A stretch of 64,000 bases of DNA, taken from contig QPGO01000013.1 in the NCBI GenBank assembly GCA_008632985.1, positions 682,001 to 746,000 on the forward strand. The letters run 5' to 3'. Below the pieces are notes generated by a model. It did no database searches. It had not been told where the DNA came from and saw nothing but the letters and a program-made list of their open reading frames with translations. This DNA comes from Psammoneis japonica. Taxonomy: Eukaryota. Positions within the stretch are counted from its first letter, which is position 1. Every line of letters starts with the position of its first letter. The position numbers and the translations under genes are program-made. Positions 1-34,309 of this stretch are shown here, in pieces.

Positions 1-1450
1 TGGTTGCGATGAACCACTCCGCTGTGAATTCACAACGCAGCATGCGTGCAGACAAAAGGTTGTTTTTGTCACGCCCTTTGTGACATTTAAAGGCTGCAAC
101 ACGTCACCGTGATACATCAACTCTTGTTGGCAGCTGTGCATTGCACTCAAGGTGAAGAGGGTCGGGCACTGACCACCGTCGTAGGATGCCAGGCTGCGAG
201 GAAGGTCGCCTGTCACAGCCTTTGCCTCATTCTCATTGAGCTCTGCCCTGGTGCCAAAGCAGGTGCAAATGATGCCACTGTTGGCCTTTTGCAGCCACAG
301 ATTCAAGTCGTGGTCCATTTCAACAGCAGGGCCATTGGGGGCACTCAAGGTGCCAATGCATCTTGTGGACGCCTTGAGGCAACACTCTTCTCATCCGAGA
401 ATGGGGCCACACCACCTGCGCACATGCAAGGATGCCGCCTTTGCCAGCCACAATGTCCATTTGTATTCGGTGCGAGACCATGTCGTGTTCGACATGCATT
501 TGCAATTCTGCCTGATTTTCTGCACTTGCAGGTGCTCACCAAACCGTCCAAGAACTGCCAAACGAGTTGGACCAGGCACCGAAAGACATTTTTGGGAAGA
601 CAGGTGGAGTGAGCACCAACGTGAGGGTGCGAGGTGAATGTCCGTGGCAGGAACCACGTCTTGAAGTCTCCACGGCAAGCACAAGGATCGTGCGGAAAAG
701 ATGAAAACACAACGATGGGAGCGTCGACATGATCTCCCAAGTCACTCACAGTGTTGCCTGCAGTGCCAGCCATCCCATGGAGGGGCGCCATTGCATCGTA
801 GTCACCTTTCTTGATGAGCTCCTTGATTGGCTCATGCATGCCTTCTTGTGACAACAGTGGGGTCTCTGGCACTGCATCTGCAAGTGGGAATGGGTTGAAC
901 AAATGCTGCTGCCAGAACGTTTTCCAAGAGTTGGGGTTTGTGACACCCACTTCATTGAGGCACTTGGTTGAGCTGCTTGCACCAACAATGATGCATTTGA
1001 TGTTTTTCACAGCTTGGGTTTCGTGAACAACAAGGTCGTGTGACTTTCCCGAGGCAGTCGTGAGAGCAACTTGGTGTCCCGCGGCGCCGCAAACACAAGC
1101 AAGCTTTGACACCGCACAGAGATGGCTGGTCATGTCATCAGAGACGATGAGAACTCGTGATGGATTTTGAGTTGAAGTGACAGTCATTTCAGCTTTTGCA
1201 CAATTCATTTTTGTTCTGTTGTCGAGGATTTTTTTGTCACCCTCCAATCCATCATGTGCAGCTTGTTGTCGTGCAGAACTGCGGGTTCGCTCACCACCCA
1301 CGCATTTTGTGAGGTTCACTTCCTGTCACAAAATGGACGCAATGCGACACTCAAGGAGTCTGAATGGCTCATAGAGAAGTGAACTTCACTCCGCGACACA
1401 CTGCACGGACGTCGCTGCCTGTGCGATTGCATTTTTCGTGTCTGGCGCCA
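1..1450. mobile_element. TpA-depleted degenerate repeat/TE block, family unassigned, truncated by window start
   Basis: Very few TA dinucleotides and Tyr-poor overlapping ORFs; ends abruptly near 1450, just before a TAGGGCCCTA/CTAG tract. CpG is partly retained. Confidence 0.55.
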
Positions 1451-1677
1451 TTACTGTAGGGCCCTACTCTAGCTAGCTAGTGTTTGTGAGAGGTTCACAC
1501 TTCACTCGGGACTGACTTTTGTACATTCATTGAAAAGATTCAGACATGAAGGATCTTTATTATCGCAATCAGAACTTCCCCCCAACCCCCCACCCGCATT
1601 CAATCAACTCACCCTTCACAAGACAAAGAACAAGAAACAAGAACTGCCAAAGATGATTCACCTTTCAGCATGACACC

Positions 1678-7718: not shown

Positions 7719-10661
7719 TTAAAAGCCTCGCTCCACTTGGCGTGTCCCACTCTTTGTTTGCAATAGCCACAACCTGGCCACAAGCGGCATTTTCTGCTCT
7801 TCCGGGCATGTTTCTGTTTGAACGAAACGCCCGCAATCGATTGATTCTTCAATGAATTGCTCGACCGACTCGAAGACGCCACTGGTGTCAAGTTCGGCAA
7901 AAAGTACCGTCGTGAATTCTGAATCATAGAAGACGGAGGTAGCCGTTGAATTCCATGATCCCAACATCAAAACGCGCGAGTCAATGAGGGCCATCTTGAA
8001 ATGAAGGCACAGCTCGCCCTCATTCCATGTCTTATCGCTGGACGCCGGAACGTAGATATCGACACCAATATTTAGAAGACTCATGAACGCCTTCCTGAAG
8101 AGGGAGTTGAAGAAGAACAAATCATTGGTGCTCGTAGAGTTCGTAACGAGACGGACCTTGACTCCTCTAGAGACTGCACCCGCGATGGCTCTTTCGACCG
8201 GCTCGAAAAGCTGAAAGTATCCAAAAACTAGATCGATGCTAGTCTCAGCGGTCTCGATAAGAAAGAGTAGCGTGGACAAAGTAATATCGTGGCCGTCGAT
8301 TCTCCCCGCTTTGTGATCAAGCTGAAAGATGGTAACATCACTCCCCAGATTTCTTGAAGATCTATTCGACACTTGGCGGAAAAACCTAGTTTCGCGTTCT
8401 CCGGAGTTTTGCTCCTCGTTGACATCAATGGATTGCAAGGCCACCGAATCGTCGTGATGAACAGCTTTCCCATTCTTGGCGTCATCCCTCAATGCATGGT
8501 TGATGCTTCTTCCTCCGTTCCATAATTTCTGAAGCAGCTCAACCGTTGATTCGGTGAAAGGTCCCTCGAGCGCGATATCAGCATCGTGAAATGAAAATCC
8601 TCTATTTTCTTCCATGAGAGAATAGGAATCGTCCGTATTTCTTCCACCTGTCAGCATCCAACGGTCGTCGATGAGCAAGATCTTACGGTGATTCCCAATC
8701 AAATATGCTGGAACCTTCTCCTCGTACAGGGTACTTAGCATTTTGATTTCAATGCCAGCCTCCAAAAGCCTCAAGGCAATTTCTCGGCAAACGGAAGTCT
8801 CCTGGTCGAGTTCACGCTTTGCTTCAAGGAACCTCAAGTTCACGGCATCCAGCATAACATGAACTCTCACACCTTTTCGGTGTTGCTTGATAAGTTCATC
8901 TGCGATTTGGTTTCCAATATTTCCATCGAGCGACCATGTTACCAGCCAAATATTGGACTCTGCCCTACGGATTAGCTCTATGCGCTTTTCGAAGGCAACG
9001 TCATTTTTCAGCAGGACGTTGCAGAGAGTTCCTTTGACTTCCCAATATTGCTCGTCGGTTCCAAGCTCGTCAAATACCTGAAGATAGGCTTGGAGATCAG
9101 ACGGAACTAGTCTTGAGGTATCTGCCGCCTTCGGTCCCTTCTGGATGATGCTGTTCTCCAGGTGGAACCCAAAGTAGCTGGTGCGCCAATCGCAAAACCT
9201 ACCAAAGAGAAATCCTTCATAGTGATTAGGCATAAAGATCTTGATGGCTCGGAATACTACTTTGTATCCCCAAGGATACGGGGGGGAGAACGGCCAGCCA
9301 AACTTGGCATCCTTGGGGTAAGCAATGCGTTTGACGACGATAAACGCCGCGGTGACCAGTACAATCAGGGGGCCAAAGAAGACCAAGGCTTGTACCGTAA
9401 TGGATGCACCCTTGCTTTTGGTGAAATCGATCAAGATTGTTTGAGCCTGGAAGATTCCTGCGACAATCGCTTGGACTCCAGCATTGTGGAAGACGTTGGA
9501 CCGTGCCACGAAACCGGGGGTGAAGTCCTTGAGCTTGTCCAACCAGAGCGCAAAGGCAGAGGAGAAGGTGTCACTGTAGAGGCCACCAAGAAGCAGTCCA
9601 TAAATGAAGAGACCTGCTTTTGCGGCTTTTTCTCGGTGTGCGGGTCCTTCTACGATGGCAGGGCTCACGCCAATCATTGCACAGAATACGACAGCCATAC
9701 TCGCGCATCCAGAAAGCACTCTTGTCTTGCTATCTCGGTCAGAGCCCACTTTTAGCGCAATAATGACGGATATTGTGCCACCAATGGGGAAACCAATGGC
9801 AGCAATCCAAAGGAAAGTTGGCTTGAGGCCAAAGTACTGCTCCGTAACAACGGACATGGTCCCGAATGCAAGGTTTGCAGCCGCCAACAGGATTGAGTCC
9901 AACGCGAAGTACTTGAAGACAGATGACTTGAAAAAGGACTTTACCGTCTGTATCACAGTCTCTTCTTGCCGAGCGATAGTATCGCGATCAATACGAGAAG
10001 CTGAAAGAAAGACCATGTCGGCACTGAAAAGGTAGAATCCGATTCCTGTCGCTCCGAGAATGGCTGCGCTGTACGCAGTAACAGAACCTGTGTTGGCACT
10101 AACCGAATTCACAATGGCCAAGCATATGCTTGGCAAAAGAAATCCGATACATTCAAAGGCTTGTCGAATCCTTGCAATTTGATCCAACTTGATGAAAAAT
10201 GTGTTTGTGAGGGTCTGGTAATTGACGAACCACATCGCCGTACCATAGCCACACAGACTGGCACATAGCGCCATTGACCTGAAATCTGTCGACAAGAAGA
10301 GACCAATGAAGCCCGAACTCATTGTCCCCACTGACAGACAAAAGAATCCGAGGGCTCGAAGTTTGCTACCAAAGCAGATGGTGGGAACCCAAAGAAAGCA
10401 GAGACCTGTGACGAAATCGGCAACGCTGTAAATGAGAAAGAGCATCCCAGCGGCGGCCACTCTGTATTCATTGGCCAGGACATGCTCTACCAAGAAGAGC
10501 TCTAGAGACAGACGAAATATCCTGTAGCCAGATATTGCAGCTGAAAACCTTGCTTTTTGCCACGACGAGATGCTGGTTGTCCCTGATTCTCCTCCAGTCT
10601 GCTGGCCGTGACAGGTGCCAGCAGTTGGGCTGTTGTTTGCTTGGTTCATCAATGGTTTCAC
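7719..10661 (-). CDS. MFS-like transporter fused to a phospholipase D / cardiolipin synthase-like domain (980 aa, intronless)
   Basis: The N-terminal ~440 aa hold about 12 hydrophobic helices. The C-terminal half has two HKD motifs (HRKILLIDD...TGGRN and HFKMALIDS...LGSWN) plus cls-like RIELIRRAESNI and GVKVRLVTNS. Confidence 0.85.
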   Translation of the reverse strand: MKPLMNQANNSPTAGTCHGQQTGGESGTTSISSWQKARFSAAISGYRIFRLSLELFLVEHVLANEYRVAAAGMLFLIYSVADFVTGLCFLWVPTICFGSKLRALGFFCLSVGTMSSGFIGLFLSTDFRSMALCASLCGYGTAMWFVNYQTLTNTFFIKLDQIARIRQAFECIGFLLPSICLAIVNSVSANTGSVTAYSAAILGATGIGFYLFSADMVFLSASRIDRDTIARQEETVIQTVKSFFKSSVFKYFALDSILLAAANLAFGTMSVVTEQYFGLKPTFLWIAAIGFPIGGTISVIIALKVGSDRDSKTRVLSGCASMAVVFCAMIGVSPAIVEGPAHREKAAKAGLFIYGLLLGGLYSDTFSSAFALWLDKLKDFTPGFVARSNVFHNAGVQAIVAGIFQAQTILIDFTKSKGASITVQALVFFGPLIVLVTAAFIVVKRIAYPKDAKFGWPFSPPYPWGYKVVFRAIKIFMPNHYEGFLFGRFCDWRTSYFGFHLENSIIQKGPKAADTSRLVPSDLQAYLQVFDELGTDEQYWEVKGTLCNVLLKNDVAFEKRIELIRRAESNIWLVTWSLDGNIGNQIADELIKQHRKGVRVHVMLDAVNLRFLEAKRELDQETSVCREIALRLLEAGIEIKMLSTLYEEKVPAYLIGNHRKILLIDDRWMLTGGRNTDDSYSLMEENRGFSFHDADIALEGPFTESTVELLQKLWNGGRSINHALRDDAKNGKAVHHDDSVALQSIDVNEEQNSGERETRFFRQVSNRSSRNLGSDVTIFQLDHKAGRIDGHDITLSTLLFLIETAETSIDLVFGYFQLFEPVERAIAGAVSRGVKVRLVTNSTSTNDLFFFNSLFRKAFMSLLNIGVDIYVPASSDKTWNEGELCLHFKMALIDSRVLMLGSWNSTATSVFYDSEFTTVLFAELDTSGVFESVEQFIEESIDCGRFVQTETCPEEQKMPLVARLWLLQTKSGTRQVERGF

Positions 10662-11549
10662 GTCTGGATCCAGAGAGAAAGAGGGTTGTTCGCGATTACT
10701 CTAGACTCTCCAGAGAAGGCCTTCTGCCTTGATTGTGGCGTGTCAAATCAAAAACATACAACAGCCGCAGTCGTACGGTGCCGTAAACAGATTGTGATCA
10801 CCATCTGATCTGATCTACTTGAAGTTCTGTACAATCGTACTAGGTGTATTGTACGTACGATTCTACAGCCTTTTTGTTCCGCGACAACCTTGTGTAGAAT
10901 CGTACCGCTATGGTTCGTAGGACCGAACGGAAAGAAGAATTGTACTAAACATTCGTACCATTCAAGTAGTAGTACGAACGCAAATAGTCGTGATGTACAG
11001 TGCAAGTACCCATTATTTATTTTATTTTACTCTTGATCCTCCAGGCGTCACATAATCAACCAATACTTATACGGTTACAATAAAATGTCAACTAAATGAA
11101 GCCGGCTCTTCTGCTAGTCTAATGCGCTGCTATCTCTCTCAACCTTACAGTTCATAGTACTAAATAGCTAGAGAGAGCCGGCCTAGAGGTAGGCAACAGG
11201 TACTTACATATTGTTCACTTGTCCTGTTAAGACCGGTTTGTCCCCCTCACTCATTTCTCCTCGCAGCGGATACCGTACTAATCGTGTATGCCGGGCTAAA
11301 GCCATTTTCACCGGTAACGAAGTTTTACTATCTAATTTTAGGACATTTCAGAAAGCGTTCTGTCCTGCCTCTCAAACCCGGCGCGCGAGATCTCTGCCAA
11401 ATAATGCGTGTGTGTAGAAATGCCGGCACGCACCATATGGATCACGCAGAAACTTTGTAACCGGCGGACTCAACCGGTCCCGCTGCCCGGCTCAACAGTC
11501 AACCGGTCCCATCGGCTGACTGCCGTAAGATGCTGAGCGACACACAATT

Positions 11550-12815
11550 GTGCCTGCCTCTAAAGAACAACAAAATGCCATGAGTCATTTTTAAAAATTG
11601 ATTGCCCAGCTTTTCATTCACCATCAGAGAGGTGAAAAAGAGTGCACCAGTCACAGGGCATCATTTGGTGCTTTGACCGAGCAAGTGTGCTCTCAGATTC
11701 GTTGCACCGGCACATCACTGGTTGAAGTGCACACTCACTTGTTGGCAGTTGACCTTTTTCATTTGTGCTCCACATTTTCATTTGGCCTGCACACGATCAT
11801 TGCCCACGGCCAAAACCACCCATTTTTCACATTCCCAACAATGTCCGTGCCACCAGCCTGGCATCGCTTTGTTGAAATCTTTGCAGTTGCATTTGATTGT
11901 TGCCCTGAACATTTCCGTTCAGCAATTTTTTGAAAATGTCATTGAAATTTTTGCATTCGATGTTTTCACGTTGGAATGCTGACATGCTCAGTTGTCAGGA
12001 CAGTGCAAAGAGCAAGGCGACCACAAATCCACTTGGCTCGCTGAGTGAAGCGACTTGCATTGTAATTTGTTTGTCCTCTCTGCAACACTTCCAAGTTTTG
12101 CTGCAAGTTTTGCTAGGGAGTTGTGATGTTGTGGATGGCCGTTGATCAAAAGGCTGGCGGAGACATCATCAAGGTAAGAGATCGCATCAAACGAGAAGCT
12201 TTTCTGAGTCGCACTTGTGCTTGGCACAAAACAACCAGACAAAACAGGCACACTGCACAAAAACAAGTTTTGCTGCAAGCTTCATTGGAGAATTGATGTT
12301 GAGCAAGATTCAAAACTCACACCAGCAGCATGGCCATTTCCAATGACACAGGGGCGGAACAAGACGAGGGAGTGATTCTCAGGTCTGATGGGTGTCATGA
12401 ACAAGCTTGAGAGCATCGCCAACAAGGGGCTCATGGAAAAGGAGGCCATTGCAAAGAAGAGAAAGTGTGCAAGGTTGCTCAAGCACTTTGTCCTGAGCAA
12501 CTTGAGCCCAGCAAAGGAGGGCACAGAGACGATGCAGGGCACCAACAAGGAAGAGCAAGGGATGGTGGCCGAGAGCCAAGAACAAGTCCTTTGAGGAGCT
12601 GGTCATGGAGATCAAATGCAACATCATGAGTGAATGACTTGGTTGATGGGAAAATTTTGTGCAGAACAATTTCAGCCAGCCGTGCAAAACAAGCGGGGGG
12701 AGGACTTGATGACTTGGGGCCTGCTCCAGCTTCAGGTGATGCGCTGGGATTCGATTCCCATCACCGGCCATTTTTGCATTTAGAAGGGCAAGTGCACACA
12801 AAACATTTGTTTTTT
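11550..12815. mobile_element. TpA-depleted degenerate element, left part (host of the Copia insertion)
   Basis: Nearly TA-free; similar sequence resumes after the Copia TSD at 19704-20085. No family motif recognised. Confidence 0.5.
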
Positions 12816-13127
12816 TGTTTTGACCTGAAGGTGACAAGGCAACCGTTGTCAACCGTTGTTTGACAAGTGCAAGGGTCCTGTTCACCTGAAATGAGTTTGA
12901 TTGGCTGGTTGATCTGCCAGACACAATGAAAGTGTCATCATCTTCAACTCACACTGTGTCCCACATGTGGCTGGCTCGGCACTGGAAAGTGAGACCATTG
13001 ATGAGGTCTTTGACATGTTGACAACATTGGTGCAACAATGAGAAGTCCACTCAAGGACCTTCTCACAATCTTGACAGTTTGCTGTTTTGTCAGTGAATTG
13101 TGCAGTTCTGTCGAGACACTTTTAGCA
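12816..13127 (+). repeat. 5' LTR
   Basis: tgttttgacctgaaggtgacaaggc...gacacttttagca; direct repeat of 19382-19698. Confidence 0.92.
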
Positions 13128-13142
13128 CTTTGTCAGAGCCGC
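13128..13142 (+). promoter_or_regulatory. Primer binding site (tRNA-Met-like, mutated)
   Basis: ctttgtcagagccgc directly follows the 5' LTR and resembles ..TATCAGAGCC with a TA->TG change. Confidence 0.6.
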
Positions 13143-13161
13143 ACCCCAACCAACTGAAACC

Positions 13162-14735
13162 ATGGCATTCACAGTGGCGCAAACCACTTCCTTCTTTGAG
13201 GATGATGACCAAATGGGTTTGCCCAATGCACTCAAGTTCAGTTGGCTGTTGAGGGTCTCGAGCACATCAACGACATAACGGACTTTGATGAGGACGGTCT
13301 CCAACAGTTGTTTGAGAACCTCAGGCATCCAGGAAGTGCAGCACAAGACCCAAACCCTGGCGCAGCTGCTGGTGCTGTCATCCAAACACCAGCATTTGTC
13401 ATTGGTGCCAAGAGTGTGATGCATCTCAAGGTCACTCACCAAGTGGCACTCTGCTGCACAACGGTTTGGCCGGGACCTGTCAGCTGCCAACATGCCTGGA
13501 ATTCTGTCCTTGAGAATTTCAGGAAGCTTGGAAGGCTCTCCAGGACAGGAAGCAGGAGGACAATCCTGATGTCCTAAAGATCTCCAAACCCCTGCCAATT
13601 GTGAAGTGGACCAAAGCCTTTCGTGGTCACCTCCAGCATGTGATCAGCAGTTGGGCTGCTCCACTTTTGCACGTGACACAGAAGGCGGTCGTGGTTCCGG
13701 CAGCTGTGCCCACACTTGCTGTGAGCCAACCGCTTCCCGATGATCATGGTTCCCTCAAGGATGAGCCAGTGGCATGTGCCAACCACACTCATCCATTGTT
13801 TTGAGAGGATGACTCCTTGGTGTGCCACTCACTTGAGGAGGCCACCTGCGGGACCTCACACACAGCCTTGATCAAGCCATTCCAGTGCAAGAAGGATGGG
13901 AGAGGGGCATGGACAGCACTGATGACACAGTGTGCCAGCAAAGACAAGTGGGCAGCTGAGCTCAAGAAACAAGAGGACTTCATCCACACGTGCAAGTGGA
14001 AAGCCCAATCGAGTTTCTCTCTTGACCGGTTTGTGTCCCAACACCGCAATGCCTTTGTCTTGATGCAACAGGAGTGCACGGAACATGTCACCTGCCAACT
14101 CCCGAACAAGTGCTTGAGGGTCACGTGCCTTTTGGATGCCATCAAGACTTCCAATGCACTGTTGCAAGCTGCAATGGCCTTGGCTCACAATGACAATGGA
14201 CAAAATGGACTTCAAGGTGGCAGCCACTCACTTGTTGCCCTGCAACCCTGTGGCAAAGAAGCGTGCTGCAAAGAGGCCTCATGCAGAAGAAGTGTCTGCA
14301 ATTGACTCCAGTGCCATCAAGTCAGGCATTGGAAACACTGGCGTAGAACTTCAGCTTCACACTCCATCCGAGCATTGCAAATTGAAGTCCAAACAGAAGG
14401 CTCAACTGAAAGAGTGGTGAGAGAGCCAGGGTTCTTCATCGCAGAAGAAGAAGAAGGATCCAAAATTGTCAGCAGCAGCATGTGGTCAACAGAAGAAAAT
14501 CAAAAAGATGATTTCAGAAGCCATGGCAACTGAGCCAGCTTCTTGTGATGAGAACGAGCAACCTGATTCTGAGGTCAACAATGCCAAGGCAGGCACTTGC
14601 CTGCTTTCCCTTGTTCAGGCGGCATTGTCAACGGCCCCAGTTGCCACTCAGGTGCTGCCTCCTCCACCACCCCCTGCTCAGGCACAGTCAGTTCAGTTCA
14701 AGCCACCCTCTGTCTCGTTGCAGCCCATGCTGTGA
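13162..14735 (+). pseudogene. Copia gag, disrupted
   Basis: ATG after the PBS; fragments EGLEHINDITDFDEDGL..LRHPG, KKDGRGAW.AL, KWKAQSSFSLDRFVSQHRNAF; multiple frameshifts and TGA stops. Confidence 0.75.
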
Positions 14736-14889
14736 CGTGCTGGTGCTCAGAAATGAAATGCAGGGACAGTGCTTTGTTCCCATGTCTCCTTGCTTGAGGG
14801 GAGAACATGCACCTTTTGTGCCATGGAATCGCAGTCACCAATTTCCAATCACTCTGCACTGCAATTCATTGCTCGTCATGTGATCTCCA

Positions 14890-17800
14890 ATGCCCAAACA
14901 AATTGAGACAACTGAAGAGACCCAAGATGAGAGCAAATCACACACCGAGCTGGACTCCCATGCCAATGTGGTTGTTGTTGGCAAGGGATTGCATGTCCCA
15001 AATGATGCCAGTTGCACAGCTCAAGTCAGCCCCTTCAATCCCGAGTGTGAATTGATGAAGGATGTCAGGATTGTGGAGGCGCTTCTTGCACACGATTGTC
15101 CACATTCCTTGAAGACATGCCTGCTGGTCCCACACAACACCTTGCACATTCCAGCGATGGACCACAACTTGCATCCACCCTTTGTTCTGTGGGAGGCAGG
15201 GGTGATCATCAATGATGCACCCAAGATTCAAGTGAGAGGGCAAAAGCCTGCAGAGTGTGACCACTCCCTGGTGTTCTCAGAGACAAAGATGAGGACTCCC
15301 TTGTCTCTCTGGGGCACATTCTCTTGCTTTCCGTCAAGATGTCCAACACTGCAGGAGAGGCAAGAAACAGAAGATGTTCTGATTCTCACTCCATTGGGAC
15401 ATTCTTGGAACCCTCCTTGCTCAGATTCCTTTGCTCGCAATGAGGAAAGCATGTTGGACTGGGGAGGAAATGTGGCTGACAAAAGGAGGGATCAGATTTG
15501 GATTCTGGCAGATGACTTGCCAGATGAGGATAAAGAACTGCGCCTCTCTTCTGTTGCATCAAGCATCAAATTGCATGTTGTTGATCACAACTTGTCTGTG
15601 ATTGACCATTTCAAAGCTCGTGATGACCTGAGCAGATGTTGGGGGGCCATTGGTGAAGCCGACAGCTCCCGCGCAGTGATGTGTGACATTTCTGCCACTC
15701 TTGACCCTGCCCCACTTGCTGAAAGCTTGCAGGACCAATGTGATGTTTTGGAGTCTTTGCCTCCTTGGCAGGCTCTGCGACAGTTGGAACTGAAAGTGAC
15801 TCAGGCTGAGATGACAATGTCAATTTTGACATTTTCAAGGATTCCCAACTTGAAGACATTGTTGAAGACCTCATGGAGTGCTTCAAATCTGACCCAAGGT
15901 GGATGTTGGAGGGACCATGGCATCCAAGCCCAAAAGTGCATCTGCCAAACACTTGTCCAAGATTTGGAGAATCAGCGCCAAGGATGCCAAGTGGACCACA
16001 AACAACACCACACAGGACCTGCAATGTTCTGAGGATCCTGCTCTCTTGCAGAACTTTCTGCAAATGACAGGATGTTTTGACATTGCCAAATCACCCAACA
16101 CTTCTTTGTGAACACCTTCTTTGCAAGTGAGAAGGCTGGAAAGTCTGCACGGGGTTGCTCGTGCATGCAATTGTTTGTCACGGACAAGGGCTTCATGTGC
16201 ATTGTGCCAATGCATGCTTGTTCAGAGTTTCCCCAGGCTCTCAAGATGTTTGCCAAAGAAATGGGTGCGCTGGAGGCAATCACATGTGACAGCGATTCTG
16301 CACAGAAATCAGACAACATTTGCCAATTCCTTCATTCCATTGGCACCAGTTTGAGGTTGCTGGAAGAAGGAGCACCATGGTTGAATTGTGCTGAGCTCCA
16401 CATCAGATTGCTGAAGGAAGCAGTTGGGAAGGATGAATCACTCTGCCCCTTGCCCTTCTGGGACTGCTGCTTTGAGCAACAAGCTTGCATCAACAACCTG
16501 ACGGCTTGCAACCTGTTCCAACTTGAGGTGAGAAACCCACCTTTCTCTGTGACAGGGGAGGAAGGCAACATTTCCAACCTTGCTCAATTTGGATGGTGTG
16601 AATGGTGTTGCTTTCATGAACACACCAATCCCTTTCCCTTTGACTGCAAAGTTCTTGGTCATGTCCTGGGCCCAGCGAAAGGGGGGGGGGAATGAGATGG
16701 CCCAATGGGTTCTCAAGGGCAACGGCAACATTGTCCCATGGCATTCTGTGTGATGCCTTGTGGTTGCTGAGTGGAACAGTGACACTGAGAAATGGAAGCG
16801 TGGCACATTTGACCAATGTGTTGAGTCATGCTGAGGATCTGTGGTGCATCCTGTGCCTTCCACAGGCAAACAATTTGTTCAACATGGTGATGAAGACAAG
16901 AAACTGCATGATCTCCCTGAGTTTGACAATCCGGTTGATGCTGAAGGGAATGGTCTTGACCCAGCTCCTTTGTGTGACAGGATGATCCATGCCAAGGTTG
17001 GGGAAAACAAGCTCCGACAAGCCAAAGTCATTGGCTGAGCTGTGGATCCTGAGGGGCATGCTGTGGGCACGTGCAATGACAACCCAATTGTGAACACCTT
17101 GATGTGCAAAGTCGAGTTTCCTGACAGGGAGACAAAGGAGTGTGCCGCCAACATGATCATGGAGAACATGCTCTCTCAAGTCAACTCAAAAGGATGCACT
17201 CTGAATGTGTTTGACAGCACACTTGATTTTGTCAAGGTTGACACCACACCAACCAAGGACAACATGCATGCCAAGGTTGGGAAGCAGTCTTGACTGTGCA
17301 AGACGACATGTGGATGGAAGTTTCTTGCACTGTGGAAGGACGGGACCAAGTCATGGGGGTTTCCCTCAAGGACATGAAGGAATCCCACCCCATTGAAATG
17401 GCTGGTTTGCCAAAGCAAGGGGTGCAGATGATGAGCCAACCTTCCGATGGTGGACACCACACACACTGTGCAAGCAAGATGCAATTGTGTCAGTGGTTGA
17501 GGCACGTGTGCGACGTGTTGCACACAAGTGTGGAGTCAAGCTCCCTGCCTCTGTTGGAGATGCACTTGAACTTGACCATCAAAATGGAAACAAGCTGTGG
17601 GAACAAGCCATTGCCAAGGAGATGCATGACGCCAGTGGTTGGTCCAAGCAGTCAGGCCACTTGATCTTTGATGTCAAGGTGACCATGGCCAGGAAGGCTC
17701 AATGGGTCCTCGACGGACACAAGACTTCCAACCCCAAAGGCTTGATGCATGCCGGCATCACATCTGGGGAGAGCACACGAATTGCTCTTGCACACACCGC

Positions 17801-19200
17801 TCTGAATGACATTGATGTCGTGGCGGCTGACATCCACAACATGCACCTGCAAGCCCCTTTGTCACAGAAGCACTGTGTCATGTGCGGCCCTGAATTTGAC
17901 CTTGACAATGTTGGCAAACATGCCCCAATTCATTGTGCTCTGCATGGTGGCAAGTCTGTGGGGTGCAACTTTCGGAATTGTCATCTTTGCGCATGCATGT
18001 CACATCTTGGGTTCAAGCCATGCAAAGCTGACCCTGATGTGTGGATGCATGAGGCTCTCAAGTCTGATGGGTCTGAGCATTGGGAACATGTGCTCCTGCA
18101 CACGGACGACGTCTCATGCATTTTGAACAATGCAGAGAGCATCCTGTGGAAGGAAACTGGCAAATGCTTTCTGCTGAAGGAGGCGTCAATCGGCCCTCCC
18201 AGTTTGCATCTCTGGGAGGCCACTTGCAAAAGGTGCCACTTGCAAATGGAGCAAAGGCATGGGCCTTCAGCTCTTCTCAGTGCACTCAAGGTGGCAGTCA
18301 AGAACATTGAGACCCACCTGGGAGAGAGAGGCATGAAGCTGCCCACCAAGGCCCCAACTCCTCTTGGCAGCTCGTGTTGTCCCGAGGTTGACAGCAGCCC
18401 AGAACTGTCACCATTGGAGGCTGCACACTGCCAGTTGCTCCCTGGCATTCTGCATTGGATGGTTGAGCTTGGGCATGTCAACATTTGTTTAGAAGTGTCC
18501 ATGATGTCTTTGCATTTGGCCCCACCTTGCAAAGGACACCTCGACCAAGTGTGCCATGTCTTTGCACACCTCAAGAAGCACCATGACACGGAGATGGCAT
18601 TTGATCCCAGCGACCCTGTCATTGATGAAGCTTTGTTTGCTCAACAGGACCAGACCACCTCCAAGTTTGGCTTTGCAACTTCTGAGGAAATGCCTGCTGA
18701 CATGCCCCAGGCAGGAGGAATGGGCATGTTGTTGTGTGCTTTTGTTGATGCAGATCATGCAGGTGACTTGATCACTTGCCAATCTTGCACTGGTTTCCTT
18801 GTGTGCCTGGCTGAACTCTGCACCTGTTCGCTGGATGTCTGAGAAACAGACAAGCACTGAGACAAGTTCATTTGGGTCTGAGTTTGCCAGCATGAAGCAA
18901 TGCACAGAGTGCATTCATGGGCTTCATTGCAAGCTCTGGATGATGGAGATCCGGCAGTTGGACCGGCACATGTGTGTGGTGACAACCAGTCTGTTCTGGC
19001 AAACACCTCTGTCCCTGACTCAATGTTGAAAAAGAAATGTCACAGTTTGGTGTGCCACTTTGTTTGTGAGGGTGTGTCCCGGGACAAGTGGTGACGGCGC
19101 ACGTCAACACACACTTGAATCCAGCAGATCTTCTCACCAAAGCACTCCCACCAGGAGAGAAGCACAATCAGTTTGTCAGAATGATCTTGCACTGCCTTGG
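14890..19200 (+). pseudogene. Copia pol (protease, integrase, RT, RNase H), disrupted
   Basis: PR TELDSHAN; IN QLFVTDKGF..ALKMFAKEMG; RT HLIFDVK..RKAQWVLDGH, DIHNMHLQAP, KADPDVW, HTDD; RH FVDADHAGD, ETSSFGSEF, GDNQSVL, NPADLLTK. Confidence 0.9.
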
Positions 19201-19366
19201 AGGGAAGGTGGAGGGTTTTGTTTGGACTTCCCGCCAACGAAGTGTTTTTTTTTTGTTTGGAGATCCCCACTTGATGGATGTTTGTGTGAAGAAATTCACC
19301 ATCGCATGTTGTTGTGCATCCCAATGTCACCAATCTAGCTTGATGACCCGACCAAGTCCAGAGATT

Positions 19367-19381
19367 GAGGATTGAGGGGAG
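19367..19381 (+). promoter_or_regulatory. Polypurine tract
   Basis: gaggattgaggggag immediately precedes the 3' LTR. Confidence 0.8.
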
Positions 19382-19698
19382 TGTTTTGACCTGAAGGTGA
19401 CAAGGCGAACCATTGCCAACCGTTGTTTCACAAGTGCAAGGGCCTTTGTTCACCTGAAACAAGTTTGATTGGCTGGTTGATCTGCCAGACACAATGAAAG
19501 TGTCATCTTCAACTCACACCATGTCCTGCATAAAAATGTGGTTGGTTTGGTTCTCGAAAAGTGGTGAGACCATTTGATGAGGTCTTTGACGTTTTGAGGA
19601 CACAAGTGTGACATCGAGAAGTCCACTCAAGGACCTTCTCACAATCTTGACAGTTTGCTGTTTCATCAGTGATTTGTTCTGTCAAGACACTTTTGGCA
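19382..19698 (+). repeat. 3' LTR
   Basis: tgttttgacctgaaggtgacaaggc...gacacttttggca followed by the TSD ttttt. Confidence 0.92.
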
Positions 19699-20539
19699 TT
19701 TTTGTGTGCACTCACCTTTCGATTTTTGAAATGATCAAATTTGAAGGAGTTTTTGTGCTAAACTGCACTGAAAATTGGCTTTTTGCATGATGGATTGCGC
19801 ATCACCTGGAGCTGGAACAGGCCTTGGGTGACAAGGGGGAGACCACTTGGCAAGCTGTGCCAAGGTCTGTGAGCTGGAGCTGATGGCAGTTTGGCAGATA
19901 AAAACCAATGAGCACAATGTGTTGCCCTCTGCAGATGGTCTCCATCTGCATGCACACACACACTTTCTCTTTGCTGTTGAGAAGAAATGGGGCATCTTCT
20001 GCTGCTGCAACCTGGTGGCTCGTTGTGTGTTCCAACCACCCCAGGACGTGTTCCAGTCCCAGGTGACGCACAAAACGACAATCGGATTTTGAATATAATT
20101 TATGTATATTTGAGTGTATATAGCATTTTAATAAAAATACTTAGACGGATTGACTTTTATAGGCTTCTAGAGTATGTACATTTAAATAGTTTTTTGAGGG
20201 GTATTCAAATCTTCATGGGATATGTATCATAAACTTCCTCAGTAGACTCAATACTGATTGTACGTCAGTAGATTTATACTGAGATTTTTTTGTAGGTAGA
20301 AAACCTACCAAGTAGCATCGTAGAAAGATATATTTAGTTAACATCATAATAACGGCAATATTTTCGCCGAAAATCATCCGTTGTGTTACGAATCTTTTAA
20401 TGCAATGAAAAACATAGATAGCACAATAACAATGATATTGCAACACTCACACGAGTCTTGTTAGTGTTGCAAAACAATTTATATTTGTATAAATCTATAC
20501 TTTTGGTGGTGAAAGTTCGATCGTAAGTTGTTAGGGACC

Positions 20540-23500
20540 GCGCAAAAATCGCGCAAATGTCGTTTTTGTGCACGATTTGGTTCACGTGCGGCTGGAACAC
20601 GTCCCAGGAGGCATTACAGACCTCCCAAGCCGGGAGTGCCCAGGAGGCAGAACTCCTCACTGGATTTGAGTGGGATTTTGGATGCAGCATGATTTGTCAT
20701 CTGCTGCACTTGGTTTGTTTCACACAGGTGTGTGTGTGTTCTTGGCTCAGTGTGCTGTTCTTGCACAATGCAGCTTTGCCAAAAGCCACATGGCTTCTCA
20801 AACAAACAAGAATGAGAAGGAACAGCAGTGTGCACTGATTTCACAATGCACATCTTTTGGATCCTGTGGTGGCCTCTGCATGGAGACTCATTTGCTGCTC
20901 AGATGGCAGCAAGCAGCCATTGTTCTTTCACACTGGACTCCTCTTCATTTTCTGTCAGACTGGTGGCCTTGGTCCATTGAGTGTTCAAGAGCATGTCAGT
21001 TTTTTTTTGTCAATGTGTGCTGGCATTTGCACAGTGGAAGCACACTCCTCAGGATGCTCTCATTGCCTGACACACCAATTGACCCAGACTCTCTCATTCC
21101 CAGATGCGCTAAAATTTGGCAACTGTGCTTTGTCTGACCTGTGCAAGGTTCCTCATTGCTGCGTGCATTGATGAAATCATCTGAATCCAATCTCCATTTT
21201 TGCCACTCCTGCTCAGGGTCACCAGATGTGCCAGCCTCTTCAACTAGGCTTTTGTGCTCTGTGCACACTTTTTGCACACACACACCAATTCTGGCCCTGC
21301 TGCATGCATGCCAAGTCCACTGCTCCACATCTGTGCCAGACTGCTGGTCCTCTGCAGCTCTGCAAGGCAATGTCTGCAAGGACATCTGTGAAAGGAAGCA
21401 GCCATGGTTGCAGCCCACCTCGAGTTTCAAGGTGTGCTTCCTGCATTTGTTCATTTGCTCTCAAGCATCTGCTTGGGTCACTCAACCAGTGCACAACAAC
21501 AAAGGTTTGGGGTTGTTGTCCACCTGCAAGTTTGCTTGCACAGGGTCTCCAAATGCTGCTCTCTGCTGCTGGCAACAAAACACCCAAAGAGCCACCACCA
21601 GCTGCAGGCCCAGCTGGACATCATGCCAGAACAACTCTGTGGGCCAGACAGGATGCTCAGCACTCAGCTGCAAGCAGGGCAGCAAAGCCCGGTGGCTTCT
21701 GGTTTGCAACATGGCTTAATTTTCAAGTTGCATCAGCCAAGTTCAGCTTCCAGCTGCCTCTGGCCCAAGTTTTGGCCATCCTTCTGCTTGCCACCATGGT
21801 TCTCACCAAACAGCAGCAAACTGAGCTTTGAGCACATTGAGGCACTGTGCCAGCTCAGAACACAGACAGCCCCCTTCACTCTGCCTTGCTGCCTTGTTGA
21901 TGGCTCTGACTTGCATCATGAGGAGTTGTCCATGTTCATGCCTGACCAGATTGATGCTCTCATTTGCAACAATGGTGCCACAACCAATGGTCATTGCGGC
22001 GCAGCTGCCAACACCTTCCAGTGGCTTTGACTGGCTTTTCAGCAATGTGAAGGGCGTGGTGGTGTGGCGCTGATGTTGGCAGCAACCCTCTTTGTCCACT
22101 CCTCAGAGCATGTGTCACTCCTTTCTTGAAGTGCAGCTCCTCCATCTGCTCCTGCACCTGACTCAATGCCACCTGCCCCATGCATGCACCAGGCGCTGAA
22201 AAAGAAGATGTGTTGCGACTTTGTCGTTGTGAAAATTACAAGCTGGTTTAGAGCAGAGAAAATGGGATTGTGCGAATGGGGAATCTTGCCAAATCCCTGT
22301 TCGTTCGCATTTGGATCGCATCAAATCGATCGTGTGTTCACATTGTGGATCGTGCGAATCAAGCCATCACGCGCCATGCACGAGTGATGTCATCGTGTGG
22401 AATCACGCTGCCATCGTGGGCCAGACGATGGGCCAGTGTGCTTCACACGGATGCTCTCTTAGCATCCTTCTGGAATTGCCTGAGACCTGGAGCCACGCCC
22501 TCCTGTGGTCGTGCTTCCCAGGTGCGCATCAACAACACTGCGTTGCCACGTGCAAGAGGCTTGTGCATGGTCTCGCCGTGTTGTCGAGAAAGAGTTGATT
22601 TTTGGTGGCCAACGACAAAGCACAATGAAAAAGCAATTGTGCATGACAACAAATGACAAACATTTGATCTGTGACCCCTGCAGAGAGTGGAGCACAACAC
22701 CTTGCAGACAAGTCTCCATGCAGAGACCATCGCAGGTGCCCCTGTGAATGATGGGGACATGTGTTCCAGGATCAGGAACAGTTTTTGGTCTGGCCAGGTG
22801 GAAGTGCTTGGTCTCATGCCTGTGATGGCATGCCCAGATGCACAGACACCCAGATGGCTGAGACACTCAGTTGGTGTGGCTCGAACCCAAGCCCACTTTG
22901 GCATTCTCACCAGAATGTGCCATTGTTGCCAACAGATTTCTGTTCCCTGACTGAGGAATGAAGTGATCTGTTGGCACCTGCTGTTGCTGTTCTCCATTGC
23001 ACTTTGTAACTTTTGTTTGAACATCAGTGCAAGTTGAGCTTGCATCTCTGACATGTCACATCAGCCTGTCTGGGTGCGCACGCATGTGTCAGAACAGCAC
23101 GACACCTGCCTTCCGGCAGGTGTGGACGAGTGCAAACTTTCATTCATGAAAACAACAAACACTGCATTTTCGTCAATTACAAAAGCAACATTGTTTTCAT
23201 TTGTCAGCAATGGAATTTTGCCAAAAACAATGTGAAAAACAACAAACATTGGAAGTGTGAGCTGGGACATTTCGATTGGATCCATGACGCCTGCAGCAGA
23301 GGTCTGGGGCAGAGAGTTCTGCTCACCACATCCACCTGACATCATCAACACTCAAGTGCAGAGTGGAGCAAGAGTGAGTCACTCTTGTTCAAATTCTGTC
23401 ACACCACCAACAACATCTGCCCCACACTCTTTTGTTCTCTCTGGCCCCAACACGCGGGGGCTGCTTGGCCACAAGTTGGTTGATGACAAGGAGCAGTGCG

Positions 23501-24240
23501 GTGCCAGGTTCAACTTCAGAATGACTCTGCCACCAACCTCTTTGACAAAGGAATGTGGGAACTGTTGCCACCATCATGCCACAATGAACAATGCCATGCT
23601 GAGGGTCACCTTCTCCTGATCATGTCAACTGCAAGTGCCCCCGCCCTTGGCTTGGCTTCACTCCAACGGGCACCATTTGCCATCCATGCCTTTGATTGCA
23701 TCATGCAGTGTGGTTGATTTGCTGTGCTTGGCTTCTCTTTGATTGTCAAGGGGGTGGGGTGGAGGGCAAGAAAAAGTTGACTGACACTCATGTTTTGCAG
23801 GCATCCATGCTTGGTGCTCTTTGCTGCACCTCTGCGTTCATTGGGCGCTGCTGAGTGAACAAGCTGGCTTGCAGACTGCAGCCAAACATTGGTTCAGTCA
23901 TGGGCCAGCTCTCTTTCAGCAGCTGGAGATTCTCAGATCTTTGTTGTTGAACATCATTCACACACATCTCTTTGCAACACTTTGAGTTGAGAATTGACGG
24001 GAGAGATTCTTTTGGACACTTCTGCGCTTTTTGGGCTCAGACAGGAACGGGCTTTCAGGACAAACACTTGTTGTGGTTCCCATCAGAATCCTGAACATTT
24101 GTCATCAGTTGTTGGGGTTCTGACAGATCATCTCGTTTTGCACTTGTTCTGATCCGCTTCTCCGAAACACTTGTCCGAGATCTTCTTGATTTTCGATGTG
24201 ATTCTGACATGGCACAGTGCACATGATGTACTGTGCCATA
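20540..24240. mobile_element. TpA-depleted degenerate repeat block, family unassigned
   Basis: TA nearly absent; Cys/His-rich, Tyr-free overlapping ORFs; hairpin at 24209-24239 near the right end. Confidence 0.55.
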
Positions 24241-24550
24241 CAGTGCTCGTCTCGTGAAAAGCTTCAGGACTTAAGGCTAGAATTTCAACTTCCTTTATTT
24301 CCAAATCCTCGTTTCTCTGATGAAGAATTATTTATTTCGATTTTTTTTTTGGAATTTTGACTCGGGCTGGCGCGACTGGTCGGTCGTCCGGTCGTGTGTT
24401 TTTCTTTTTTCTTCGCGTCCTCGCTCCTCGCCAAGGGCATCGTCGCGAAGCCAAGAGTTGAGTGTGGTTTACTACTGCTCAAGCCTTTGTTAAACCTTGA
24501 AGGAACTGGGTAATTGAAAACGGCGCTTTATATTTGCTTTAGAGGAAAAT

Positions 24551-27500
24551 ATGTTACGAGGTCTTTTGATAGCACCGTTGCTGTTTGTCAGCATGGCCAG
24601 CGGGCAACCGGTCCCGGGCGACACTATTTTGAACAAGGTGCCGTTTCTCATGACGCATGACACAGCCACGGGCTATCTCGGCAATGATGATTTGTATTTA
24701 AATCGAGAGGATCCAGATGATCTGATAATTTCATGGACAAAGACTCAGATCGGAACAGTGACGGATCAGATCAATTGCGGTGCTCGTGCGTTTGATATGC
24801 GTCCTTGGCTGACCGACGATGCGCTATTGATGCATCATGGAGGTGTGGTTGTTCCTCATCCGTTCAAGGACGCCATGGAAGAAATGGTACAATGGGCCGC
24901 TGACAATCCTGATGAGCTCTTGCTTGTTCTCGTAAATCAATGTTTTGGTGCTACACCCGAACTCAGACAAGAGTGTGACTCGAAAGCCATTGAGGCGCTG
25001 ACAGAGTTGAACATTTCCTATATCTATGATGATGTATGCAACACCACTGCACCTTTCCAGAACATGACACTCGATATGGCTAAGGAAAGTTTCAAGCTGC
25101 CCGGAGGTGGTTCTGTTTTGGTTGCTTGGAGGTATTGTTGGTTAACAAACTACATTCCCGCCAAATCCAACATTTGCTCCGGATACGAGTACGAAACGGC
25201 TGGAGTTAGCCGCAAGTATTATTGTTGGATGAATCGAACAAATCCTGACCAAGCCGTGAATCGTCTCTTTGACTACTTAGATGACATACATGAAGGAGGG
25301 GCTCCCGCAAACGGGAGTAAGTTTATCGCTTTGCTTTGACCAGACTACTGTACCGTTTTGCAATCGACTAACTTTGATTCGTGTTGCCTTCTTCTTTTAA
25401 AATAGCTCTTTGGATGACGCAAGCGATTTGGCAAGTCCAGCCAGAGAGTGCGATTGTCGGTGGATCTCATGGATCGTCCATTCTAGGAGACACGTTGATC
25501 TCTCGTGTGAATCGATTTGTCTTTGGAAACCTTACGCAGGGACGGTGGGGAACGAGGCCCGGCGTGGACGGCTTTAACATGTTGGAGGTAGACCATGTGT
25601 GTGATCAAGGCAACAACATTGCTATGGCGTTGGGAGACCCCAATATTAATCTGGCGGATTATCCCGACAATGTTGTTATTATTGATAATGGCACTGATAG
25701 GAGCATTTTGGTGGGTGACAATGTATTGTTTCCAGATGTTCCTGCCAATTTTACGCCCCGAATCTTCATCGATAACGTGTCTATTCGGAGATTTCACCGA
25801 AATGCAAGGTTTGGAAACACAAATGACATATACTTTTTAGTGGGATCAAACAACGAAGAGAAGCGCCGAGAATACATCGTTGGGATCCTTGGGGCGTTTA
25901 TATTAATGTCAGCCCTTTGTGTATTGTGGTGAGTGTTGTTTACGTATCTTGATGTTTTTTGCGCTACAGGTTCGAAAAGCTAATCTTTCGTCTACTCGTT
26001 AAGGGGGTGCTTTCTTATTTACATAAAGCTGTCGAATAGGTTCGATTGGTTGACTGGCGAGGTGCCGAGCCAGTCCAGAACAAGCCAGAAATCGTCTGAG
26101 GAAGAAGATGCTTCTAGCGCCAAGGAACATGAACAGAAAGTTGACTCCTCCCCGCCGGATGATACGCGAAATGTAACACGGTGCTTTCATTGCCCTTGCA
26201 TGGATGCTAGCAAAGAAAAAAAGTTGAAGTGGATTCGGTTTACAGTCCTGTTTTCTGGTCTTGTTATCCTGGTATGCTCTGGATTACTTATTGGTTTGGG
26301 ATTCAAGAGTGTCGTTGACATGTTGGAAACGACCCAGAGAAAGCTACCGGTGAGTTTATCTTGGTCAAAGTTATTTTATGGCCTTCTTCGGAGGAAGTAG
26401 GTGGGCGGCGTTAGTTCCGTTTCTCACCCACTCCTTGTGTGATACATGCTTTCTCTGAGTTCAGGACCTTCGAGGCCTACTTGCGACTGCGAATCGTGCT
26501 GCTGATACCTACCTTCTTCAGGTGAATAACACCAAGAAGGCAAGGACCGATTTCTTGGGCGCTTTGGCGCTCAATTGTAATCTCACAAAGGATGACCTTT
26601 CCGATGCGGCGGGCTTGAATGTGACTCAGATCGGAATTCAGAATGTGACAGAACTTCTGATCGCACTGAACGAGACTCTAAATAAACTTGAATTCCTGGA
26701 CCCAGAGGTATCCGCCATTAACAGATCCCTCGCTGGCCTACAGAGGGACATTATGAGCGTCGAGAATACGGTAGACGACATCAAAACATCGGTATTATTC
26801 CCAATCGCGGTCGCTTTTGTGTTGCTGGTGGATCTGATGACAATTTGGTTCATGGTTGGAGTCTACGTTGCATGGAAGAAGCAATCTCCTAGACTCTTCA
26901 ACGATTGCGGCACCAAGATTGCACTCCCCTTATATATTTCCGTTATCTTTATTGCATATTTGATGTCAGGGCTCGCAACTGCTGGAGCGGCTTTGTCCGC
27001 AGATTTCTGCGTAAGCGAGCGTGTTTCAATGCCCGAATAGTTTCAACGCGTAGCTTTGCTCATGTCTGGTCTTTGTTTACTGCTTACAGATTGAGACTCC
27101 AGATAACCAAGTGTTACGTATCATTGACGCCGAAGCACCGTTTGACGAGTTTTTCGAATACTACGTCCGGGTAAGTAACCGGAGCCCTGTTGAGTTCCGT
27201 TTTCTTTGTTTTAGCGGGTGTCTCACTTGTTTTCTTCTTTCATACACCAATCTGTGCAAGGGATGTGACCGAAATCTTAAACCTGAATTGCTTTTCGATG
27301 CATTCAAGGGGGTCGAGGTCGCCCTCCTCAAGATCCGCGAGGGTTTAACAGCCGTGTCGAATGCAGAGCCCGACACTCTACCATGCAAAAACGAATACTA
27401 TGTCCTTAGCACTGCTGGTGTCTTTGAAACGCAATACAACTTGTTTCTCAATGTCCTTTATCAACTTGGTGTGGAACTGAATTGTGACAAGGTCAACCCA

Positions 27501-27926
27501 ATCTATACAGGGATTGCCTACAGAGGTAAGCTAGTTTTGAAAATGTATTTGCAAGAGTCATTGCTGCGTTCAAACTAACATTTTTCTCCGTGCTTGCTGT
27601 GCAGCGACTTGTATCAATGGATTTGATTCCTTTTCTCTAATATTTTCATTCTTGCTTGTAATAGCGCTCTGCGCCATGGTAATAATAACACTTCGTGTTG
27701 CGTTTTACGACGTGGACATGGCGCAGGATGAATTGGATCGATTAAACAAGGAACAACAAAGGAGGTGGCCATGGAACAGGGCATTATAAAACAAGAGGAA
27801 CATGTTTCTTCAGAATCGTTTTTAAAAGAGGAGAGTAACGAATCATTTCAACAAGAGGAAAATGGAGATGCAGAGGATGTCACTGGTCAAGAGCATTATG
27901 AAATCAAAGAGCAAGAATCGCCTTGA
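24551..27926 (+). CDS. Paralog of the 1678-4784 gene: PLC-X-like phosphodiesterase plus multi-pass membrane domain; multi-exon
   Basis: PFLMTHDTATGYLG, QINCGARAFDMRP, CSGYEYETAGVSRKYYCW, ARFGNTNDIY shared with the first copy. Donors near 25317, 25929, 26350, 27011, 27171, 27526. Stop at 27789 as written, or 27926 if a 1-bp indel near 27760 is corrected. Confidence 0.75.
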
Positions 27927-34163: not shown

Positions 34164-34309
34164 AGTCAAGTCGAGGTTCGCGTGGTCAATTTTTTCATGT
34201 CGCAAGAAAACTACAAGTACAAATCGACACTATAAGCTACATTGGAAGACTATGTCACTTAGTCCTGCAATTATAAGTCAATCAGAGAATGCCAAGCATG
34301 AGGCATCTG

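Follow-up and report, generated by a model that had tools for sequence, protein, structure and literature searches.

Fungal repeat-induced point mutation (RIP) changes C:G to T:A at CpA, makes TpA in doing so, and is triggered by duplication. Here we describe a locus at which TpA is lost. It lies in a 64-kb stretch of DNA from Psammoneis japonica (NCBI GenBank assembly GCA_008632985.1, contig QPGO01000013.1, positions 682,001 to 746,000), which we call the window and in which positions are counted from the first nucleotide. A Ty1/Copia long terminal repeat (LTR) retrotransposon at 12816-19698, together with other degraded repeats, has been stripped of nearly every TpA. A first-pass annotation had attributed this to a repeat-targeted mutator and knew of no description of such a process. 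There is one, from mutation-accumulation lines of Bigelowiella natans, and the spectrum given in its main text is identical.

In these lines, TpA changes de novo to TpG or CpA (Mettrop et al., bioRxiv 10.64898/2026.01.13.699255). According to the main text of the preprint, two integrated viral regions took 231 of the 302 nuclear single-nucleotide mutations; all except one of the 231 were A-to-G or T-to-C, every such change was at TpA, and the TpA rate in the viral regions was about 1,000 times background. The text also describes 324 TpA-depleted coding sequences enriched in reverse transcriptase (RT) and DDE domains, as well as 124 clusters poor in TpA and rich in CpA and TpG, and its authors propose an ADAT2-like adenine deaminase. 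The words "CpG," "diatom," and "retrotransposon" do not occur in this main text. Searching the literature by title or abstract, we found the signature described in this preprint alone, and nothing for diatoms or elsewhere.

As far as the main text of the preprint goes, the two cases share near-exclusive A-to-G and T-to-C change at TpA, on both strands, in discrete regions of foreign derivation. They also share a long-term footprint of TpA loss with CpA and TpG gain that includes RT- and DDE-bearing sequences. However, the host here is a diatom (a stramenopile), whereas B. natans is a chlorarachniophyte (a rhizarian), and the targets here are an LTR retrotransposon and degraded repeats, whereas there they are giant-virus and virophage insertions. 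The observed/expected ratio (O/E) of TA is 0.02-0.04 here, near saturation, compared with 0.45 in the nucleocytoplasmic large DNA virus region there. Finally, the loss coincides here with CpG decay and is known from its sequence footprint, while in B. natans a de novo rate is available. The process is real but already described in kind, and this is, as far as our searches go, the first diatom case; the diatom host, the near-saturated retrotransposons, and the co-location with CpG decay appear to be novel.

The Copia element contains 8 TA dinucleotides in 6,883 bp, whereas 427 would be expected at its base composition (O/E 0.02; Poisson p ~1e-170, or ~1e-88 against the genic level of the window, 0.55). 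This bears out the near absence of TA over 6.9 kb that the first-pass annotation had reported. TA is absent between 15531 and 18490, the longest such run (2,959 bp). CG is also depleted (110 occurrences, O/E 0.25), while TG (792, O/E 1.82) and CA (726, O/E 1.71) are in excess; AT (0.87), AA (1.11), and TT (1.18) have the same O/E as in the whole window. We rejected GC-biased gene conversion as an explanation, since the loss is limited to TA, AT, AA, and TT are unaltered, and the GC content of the affected DNA is ordinary (0.44-0.52).

A dinucleotide profile in 128 bins of 500 bp across the window showed that TA content is bimodal and that the loss extends wider than the Copia element: TA O/E was below 0.1 in 41 of the 128 bins and 0.4-0.8 in most others. 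The TA-free state occupies five blocks (1-1371, 11593-20075, 20562-24228, 43202 to ~50000, and 57192-60070), together 23,189 bp (23.2 kb) or 36% of the window. Pooled, these contain 54 TA, 351 CG, 2,618 TG, and 2,626 CA (TA O/E 0.036, CG O/E 0.25). We found no mutual similarity among the five in a self-comparison. Their edges are sharp: TA is dense up to 11592, 43201, and 57191 and again from 1372, 24229, and 60071, and inside there is none for hundreds of bases. Across the bins, TA O/E rose with CG O/E (Spearman 0.68) and fell as TG/CA increased (Spearman -0.84), and a gain of TG/CA accompanied every TA O/E below 0.2. Mean CG O/E was 0.25 in those low-TA bins and 0.97 in the remaining ones.

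The element itself is a frameshifted, dead Ty1/Copia LTR retrotransposon (Table 1). Self-BLAST gave a direct repeat, 12816-13131 versus 19382-19702, with 83% identity. The 481-aa RT frame has 460 homologues, the best of them 54% identical, and PF07727 (RVT_2, the Ty1/Copia reverse transcriptase) is present in all 120 that were listed; tblastn with these 120 gave matches confined to ~16000-19200. The pol region shifts frame several times, and the element is therefore dead. Pfam returned no match for the Copia open reading frames (ORFs), with the RT copy of the window below threshold, which is understandable because the intact RT homologues themselves score just 46-61 bits. No integrase domain was recognised in the window or in the longer homologues, whose N-terminal parts align with the region upstream of the RT. 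The purine-rich tract next to the 3' LTR resembles a polypurine tract and probably functions as one. Contigs of a public run, X1, which contains 83% of the sampled words, bypass the element by linking 12804, 12816, or 12818 to 19699 or 19711. Thus, as these contigs show, the Copia element is nested in another degraded TA-free repeat.

We read the direction of change from homologues, pooling 60 of the 120 listed for the RT with the first 41 of 107 for a 396-aa ORF in the block at 57192-60070 (block E). Of 23 positions of conserved Tyr, none is still Tyr in the window: 14 are His, 8 Cys, and 1 Ala; the 17 columns in the Copia RT account for 11 His, 5 Cys, and the Ala, and the six in block E for 3 Cys and 3 His. 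Thus, 22 of the 23 hold one of the two products of A-to-G change at TpA, as the first-pass annotation had argued from motifs that we found in place: DIHNMHL, ALHG, HWEHVLLHTDD, and HKCG at 17829, 17937, 18078, and 17523, and AHCQ, LHCKL, CGDN, and CHFVCE at 18423, 18922, 18975, and 19053. The 380-aa and 451-aa ORFs that it had described as free of Tyr were both found and contain none. Measured against the homologues, A-to-G change is enriched at TpA over other contexts: at codon position 2 it affected 8 of the 23 TpA positions but 1 of 92 in ApA, GpA, or CpA (Fisher p 7e-6), and in ApA alone 1 of 26 conserved positions. T-to-C change at codon position 1 affected 14 of the 23 TpA positions but 1 of 54 in TpT, TpG, or TpC (Fisher p 1e-8). 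Conserved residues other than Tyr, Arg, and Ser were retained at 251 of 326 positions.

The two strands were affected alike. TG and CA are nearly equal in number over the pooled blocks, the His:Cys ratio of 14:8 gives p 0.29, and strand-coordinated runs were absent (runs-test z 0 to +2.9). These data support a context-specific A:T-to-G:C process that erased TpA on both strands. Superimposed on it is CpG decay, also as the first-pass annotation had proposed. At 22 conserved Arg columns of the Copia RT, we found 6 Arg, 7 Cys, 3 His, 2 Gln, 2 Gly, 1 Trp, and 1 Lys, and conserved Ser had become Leu in 7 of 16 columns. Deamination of 5-methylcytosine (5mC) accounts for the low CG and for the replacement of Arg by Cys, His, Gln, or Trp and of Ser by Leu, but it is unable to remove TpA.

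The LTR pair now differs at 34 aligned columns, 16 of which go from one pyrimidine-purine step to another; they include 5 TG/CA swaps (TG in one LTR, CA in the other), besides which there are 6 other changes between such steps. An internal repeat of the block at 43202 to ~50000 (block D; 47073-47419 versus 47964-48324) has 18 such swaps, compared with zero in two duplications located in TA-normal DNA (872 and 520 columns). Since the two LTRs were identical at insertion, their TG/CA swaps demonstrate that the changes took place after integration, at the DNA level, with an ancestral TA or CG resolved in each copy independently.

Targeting tracked the CpG-depleted state and not copy number. In the duplications at 51631-52448/56118-56984 (88% identity) and 40385-40904/50477-50980 (90%), TA and CG are at normal levels; the Copia element is single-copy at 31-mer depth in X1, and a very high-copy 486-bp insert within the affected zone is untouched. 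Of the mutator proposed by the first-pass annotation, the action on silenced mobile DNA and the context specificity thus hold, while the trigger by repeats does not. The CpG depletion that the TA-free blocks share suggests 5mC-methylated, silenced DNA; diatom transposons are presumably CpG-methylated. However, among the environmental Copia relatives, six have CG O/E of 0.19-0.35 and yet retain TA O/E of 0.48-0.81; methylation of a diatom transposon is therefore not generally accompanied by the process. Conversely, in two metagenome proteins related to that of block E, conserved Tyr columns are occupied by Cys or His (13 of 14 in P0242, 14 of 14 in P0348), and 18 of 18 conserved Arg remain. At the protein level, this points to TpA loss without CpG decay in other organisms or copies. 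A single dual enzyme for CpG and TpA was rejected as unnecessary, as the two losses occur apart elsewhere.

The TA-free sequence is reproduced in X1, whose platform is not on record. Contigs at single-copy depth (31-mer depth 51-61; unique flank, 57.5) give the same TA-free sequence of the element in stretches of 703-1,523 bp that differ from it at 0-9 places; their depth and accuracy point to accurate reads. In the unique flank at 9500-11262, we observed 5 small indels and 1 substitution relative to an X1 contig in 1,763 bp, which suggests residual long-read assembly errors or a second haplotype. Nor do the relatives themselves lack TpA and Tyr: Tyr makes up at least 3.5% of all 120 listed RT homologues, and TA O/E is 0.46-0.81 at all 80 environmental loci fetched, which were the best-scoring of 571 and are biased toward intact copies.

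Over 15,001 bp, we counted 82 differences between the window and X1, namely 21 A>G, 17 T>C, 15 G>A, 10 C>T, and 19 of other kinds. X1 has TG or CA in place of 5 of the 23 residual TA compared (12115, 13575, 14345, 18491, and 23007); the opposite change was found at one clean site (22970), and TG/CA swaps at two sites. Even if every difference that is not individually listed falls elsewhere, differences are enriched ~24-fold at residual TA (p 5e-6). Conversion of TpA is possibly recent or ongoing between haplotypes or strains. The 54 surviving TA have mainly T (28) or C (11) on the 5' side and A (26) or G (19) on the 3' side. Thus, 45 of 54 have a 3' purine and 39 of 54 a 5' pyrimidine, compared with 42% and 47% in control DNA; elsewhere in the window, where TA content is normal, T precedes TA less often than any other base does, and A follows it least often. 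Either YTAR (Y, pyrimidine; R, purine) is a poor substrate or the survivors were regenerated by C-to-T change at CAR. There is a hint that, if a TA deaminase shared with B. natans is at work, its preferred target is RTAY. Such a preference resembles the U33-A34-C35 context of TadA.

We consider it probable that a host process acting on double-stranded genomic DNA after integration changed TpA to TpG or CpA in this dead diatom Copia element and in the other blocks, leaving the signature seen in B. natans. Such a process would have converted ~97-98% of all TpA through A:T-to-G:C transitions at a palindromic dinucleotide, with either strand equally likely to be hit and one site changed per event. 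Ordinary CpG decay, running in parallel, would leave nearly every pyrimidine-purine step as TG or CA. The process would be confined to CpG-depleted, presumably 5mC-methylated and silenced DNA, with edges falling within tens of bases, and would be independent of whether the sequence is repeated today. The likeliest chemistry would be deamination of adenine to hypoxanthine in 5'-TA-3' by a deaminase of the cytidine deaminase (CDA) fold, similar to ADAT2 or TadA, which may be recruited to silenced chromatin. More tentatively, diatoms and chlorarachniophytes may share a chromatin-targeted adenine deaminase of genomic DNA specific for 5'-TA-3'; this would amount to a natural "base editor" of DNA adenine and an "inverse RIP" that would serve in defence by saturating silenced transposons and viral insertions.

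Several points weigh against a host process of this kind. The entire case is drawn from one 64-kb window. All 80 environmental Copia relatives fetched have kept their TA, including the six whose CG O/E is at or below 0.35. The signs of recent conversion come from a comparison in which 40 of the 82 differences were listed individually, and those at residual TA may separate haplotypes or stem from assembly error. The window may have been assembled from the X1 sample, the independence of X1 being judged solely from contig depth and accuracy. In addition, since TpA is palindromic, A-to-G on one strand is T-to-C on the other, and a thymine-directed chemistry fits equally well, including all of the Tyr changes and the TG/CA counts. 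A TET/JBP-type dioxygenase or another modifier could act on the T of TpA in silenced DNA, and mispairing of 5-formyluracil with G would then give T-to-C. The TpA of dinoflagellates is enriched in 5-hydroxymethyluracil, and 5-formyluracil promotes T-to-C mutation. However, a lesion would have to miscode very cleanly to give almost nothing but transitions and to reach ~97% completion, and we regard this chemistry as unlikely. The error-prone repair that the first-pass annotation had listed among its candidates fares worse. Polymerase eta makes A-to-G errors at WA motifs (W, A or T), and patch repair of T:G mismatches after 5mC deamination in methylated repeats would place TA and CpG losses in the same DNA, as observed. 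Yet WA covers ApA, where 1 of 26 positions changed and AA O/E is 1.11, compared with 8 of 23 in TpA and a further 14 of 23 on the other strand. Moreover, the strongly CpG-decayed environmental relatives keep their TA, and the metagenomic relatives of block E are Tyr-depleted with every Arg in place. A polymerase eta-type origin is thus quite improbable.

If base modification caused real TA (and CG) to be misread as TG or CA, the blocks would be a basecalling or assembly artefact. The 5 gaps in the unique flank do suggest a long-read assembly, and some differences between the window and X1 fall at CG versus TG/CA. However, X1 contigs agree on the TA-free sequence, and strand-specific miscalls at a palindrome should leave a mixture of TA, CG, TG, and CA in the consensus, not the TA O/E that we observed. 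The TA-rich 486-bp insert inside the zone was read normally, and block E relatives with Cys and His in place of Tyr come from unrelated metagenome assemblies; an artefact is very improbable. A-to-I editing of the retrotransposon RNA by an ADAR-like enzyme before reverse transcription could also have been fixed by integration, as ADARs favour a 5' U and hyperedit double-stranded RNA that comes from repeats (main text of bioRxiv 10.64898/2026.01.13.699255). Such editing is expected on the sense strand only, but Tyr-to-His, which is antisense A-to-G, is the commoner change (14 of 22) and TG equals CA. The LTR swaps arose after integration, the host repeat around the Copia element and the unrelated blocks are equally hit, and ApA is untouched, so that we give RNA editing scarcely any credence. 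A native composition, in which the elements avoid TA by themselves, for instance to escape a TA-targeting nuclease or transposon, would account for the TA depletion and nothing more. It is contradicted by a pseudogene that runs across several frames, by conserved Tyr turned into His or Cys, by LTR copies with different outcomes at the same site, and by relatives with normal TA, and its probability is close to nil.

A post-integration host process resembles fungal RIP in being dense, limited to transitions, and specific for a dinucleotide, in killing transposons in place, and in its sharp domains. However, TpA is destroyed here, the direction opposite to RIP, and duplications of 88-90% identity are untouched; the statement of the first-pass annotation that RIP cannot explain the loss agrees with this. 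ADAR hyperediting, with its 5' U preference, and APOBEC editing of retroelements are similar in being deaminase-type editing of selfish elements. They act on RNA or single-stranded cDNA and leave strand-biased, clustered tracts, whereas the changes here are strand-symmetric, unclustered, and post-integration.

If the process is enzymatic, it would add to RIP and APOBEC-type editing a second kind of hypermutation that kills transposons in eukaryotes, one whose chemistry is opposite (A:T to G:C). Its occurrence in both a diatom and a chlorarachniophyte would mean that it is widespread among algae of the stramenopile-alveolate-rhizarian (SAR) group and not a curiosity of one strain. We know of no characterised natural DNA adenine deaminase with TpA specificity, and such an enzyme would interest base-editing work. 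There are also consequences for annotation. Domain searches overlook TA-erased elements: Pfam gave no match in 65 ORFs of at least 110 aa from the TA-free blocks. Gene callers will predict long false ORFs in such DNA because TAA and TAG cannot occur in it, and copies that are converted independently cease to look like repeats. The window is also a natural experiment, in which saturated old elements stand beside an unmutated, very recent, high-copy insert.

Table 1. Features of the TA-free blocks and the Copia element in the window.
Feature	Position	Strand	Basis
Block A, TA-free, extends past the window start	1-1371		Dinucleotide profile, TA positions
TA-free host repeat carrying the Copia insertion	11593-12815, resuming 19699-20075		TA positions, X1 contigs
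Target-site duplication TTTTT (5 bp)	12811-12815, second copy 19699-19703		Read from sequence
5' LTR (TG...CA, 312 bp)	12816-13127	+	Self-BLAST, alignment, ends read from sequence
Copia internal region, several frames	13128-19381	+	ORFs, tblastn, frame changes
ORF in Copia internal region	14884-16029	+	ORF list
Pre-RT region	16498-17356	+	tblastn with N-terminal parts of longer homologues
RT, 481-aa frame	17397-18839	+	Homologues with PF07727
C-terminal pol part over three frames	18796-19204	+	tblastn, frame changes
Purine-rich tract just 5' of the 3' LTR	19366-19381	+	Sequence
3' LTR (TG...CA, 317 bp)	19382-19698	+	Alignment with 5' LTR, ends read from sequence
Insert, 486 bp, more than 50 TA, very high-copy, not hypermutated	20076-20561		Sequence, TA list, X1 depth
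Block C, TA-free, family unassigned	20562-24228		Dinucleotide profile; without Pfam match
Block D, TA-free, CG O/E 0.04-0.39	43202 to ~50000		Dinucleotide profile, self-comparison
Block E, TA-free; 396-aa ORF at 57601-58788, minus strand	57192-60070	-	107 homologues, unnamed family

The 486-bp insert is bordered by 23-nucleotide inverted arms at 20044-20066 and 20582-20604. Its summed X1 contig depth is ~15,000, compared with 57 in the flank, and it looks like an insertion of a high-copy element similar to a miniature inverted-repeat transposable element (MITE). The insertion appears to be very recent because one X1 contig (depth 64) goes from 20075 to 20562 without it. Within block C, a short, CpG-rich stretch at 22280-22460 is also very high-copy (summed X1 contig depth ~47,000), and loose-end consensus sequences nearby look like that stretch.

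By origin, one of the five blocks contains the Copia element, one has a Gag-like lead, and three are of unassigned origin. The lead concerns the 396-aa protein of block E, whose family is possibly a retroelement Gag-like one. In the protein Atlas, it falls near zf-CCHC/Retrotrans_gag clusters at 0.88-0.92, which we take as a lead only, and Pfam gave no match in 7 of its homologues. For the 326-aa ORF of block A, a near-length search found no homologue, and for the block D ORF the Atlas gave nothing above 0.78. Rfam returned nothing at gathering score over the window. Several metagenome proteins of the block E family (P0242, P0348, P0249, P0349, P0287, and P0291) are nearly free of Tyr, with Cys or His at the Tyr columns and Arg intact. 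DNA relatives were not found for P0348 in metagenome contigs, for P0287 in genome contigs, or for P0242 in viral contigs. One of the nearly Tyr-free proteins sits under a Saprospiraceae metagenome-assembled genome, on a 1,181-bp contig. Hypermutated relics of eukaryotic transposons have been called as proteins, and it appears also mis-binned, in public data.

The 88% and 90% duplications adjoin blocks D and E, and one of them overlaps a 343-aa ORF without a Pfam match. Blocks A and C are directly adjoined by two pairs of adjacent ORFs without Pfam matches, at 1657-4215 and 24518-27717, which are diverged paralogues ~23 kb apart (66-75% DNA identity). A 500-bp intergenic patch at 34300-34790, in which Tandem Repeats Finder detected no array, consists almost entirely of CTAG, GTAGCTAC, and TCTAGAG words; its TA O/E is 1.5, and the process left it alone. 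The flanking genes are eukaryotic and intron-poor and encode a phospholipase D, a PI-PLC, an ACBP-ankyrin protein, COG7, and an M16 peptidase. All named relatives of the M16 peptidase are from diatoms, the best being from Asterionellopsis (67%) and Fragilaria crotonensis (62%). Therefore, the host is a diatom.

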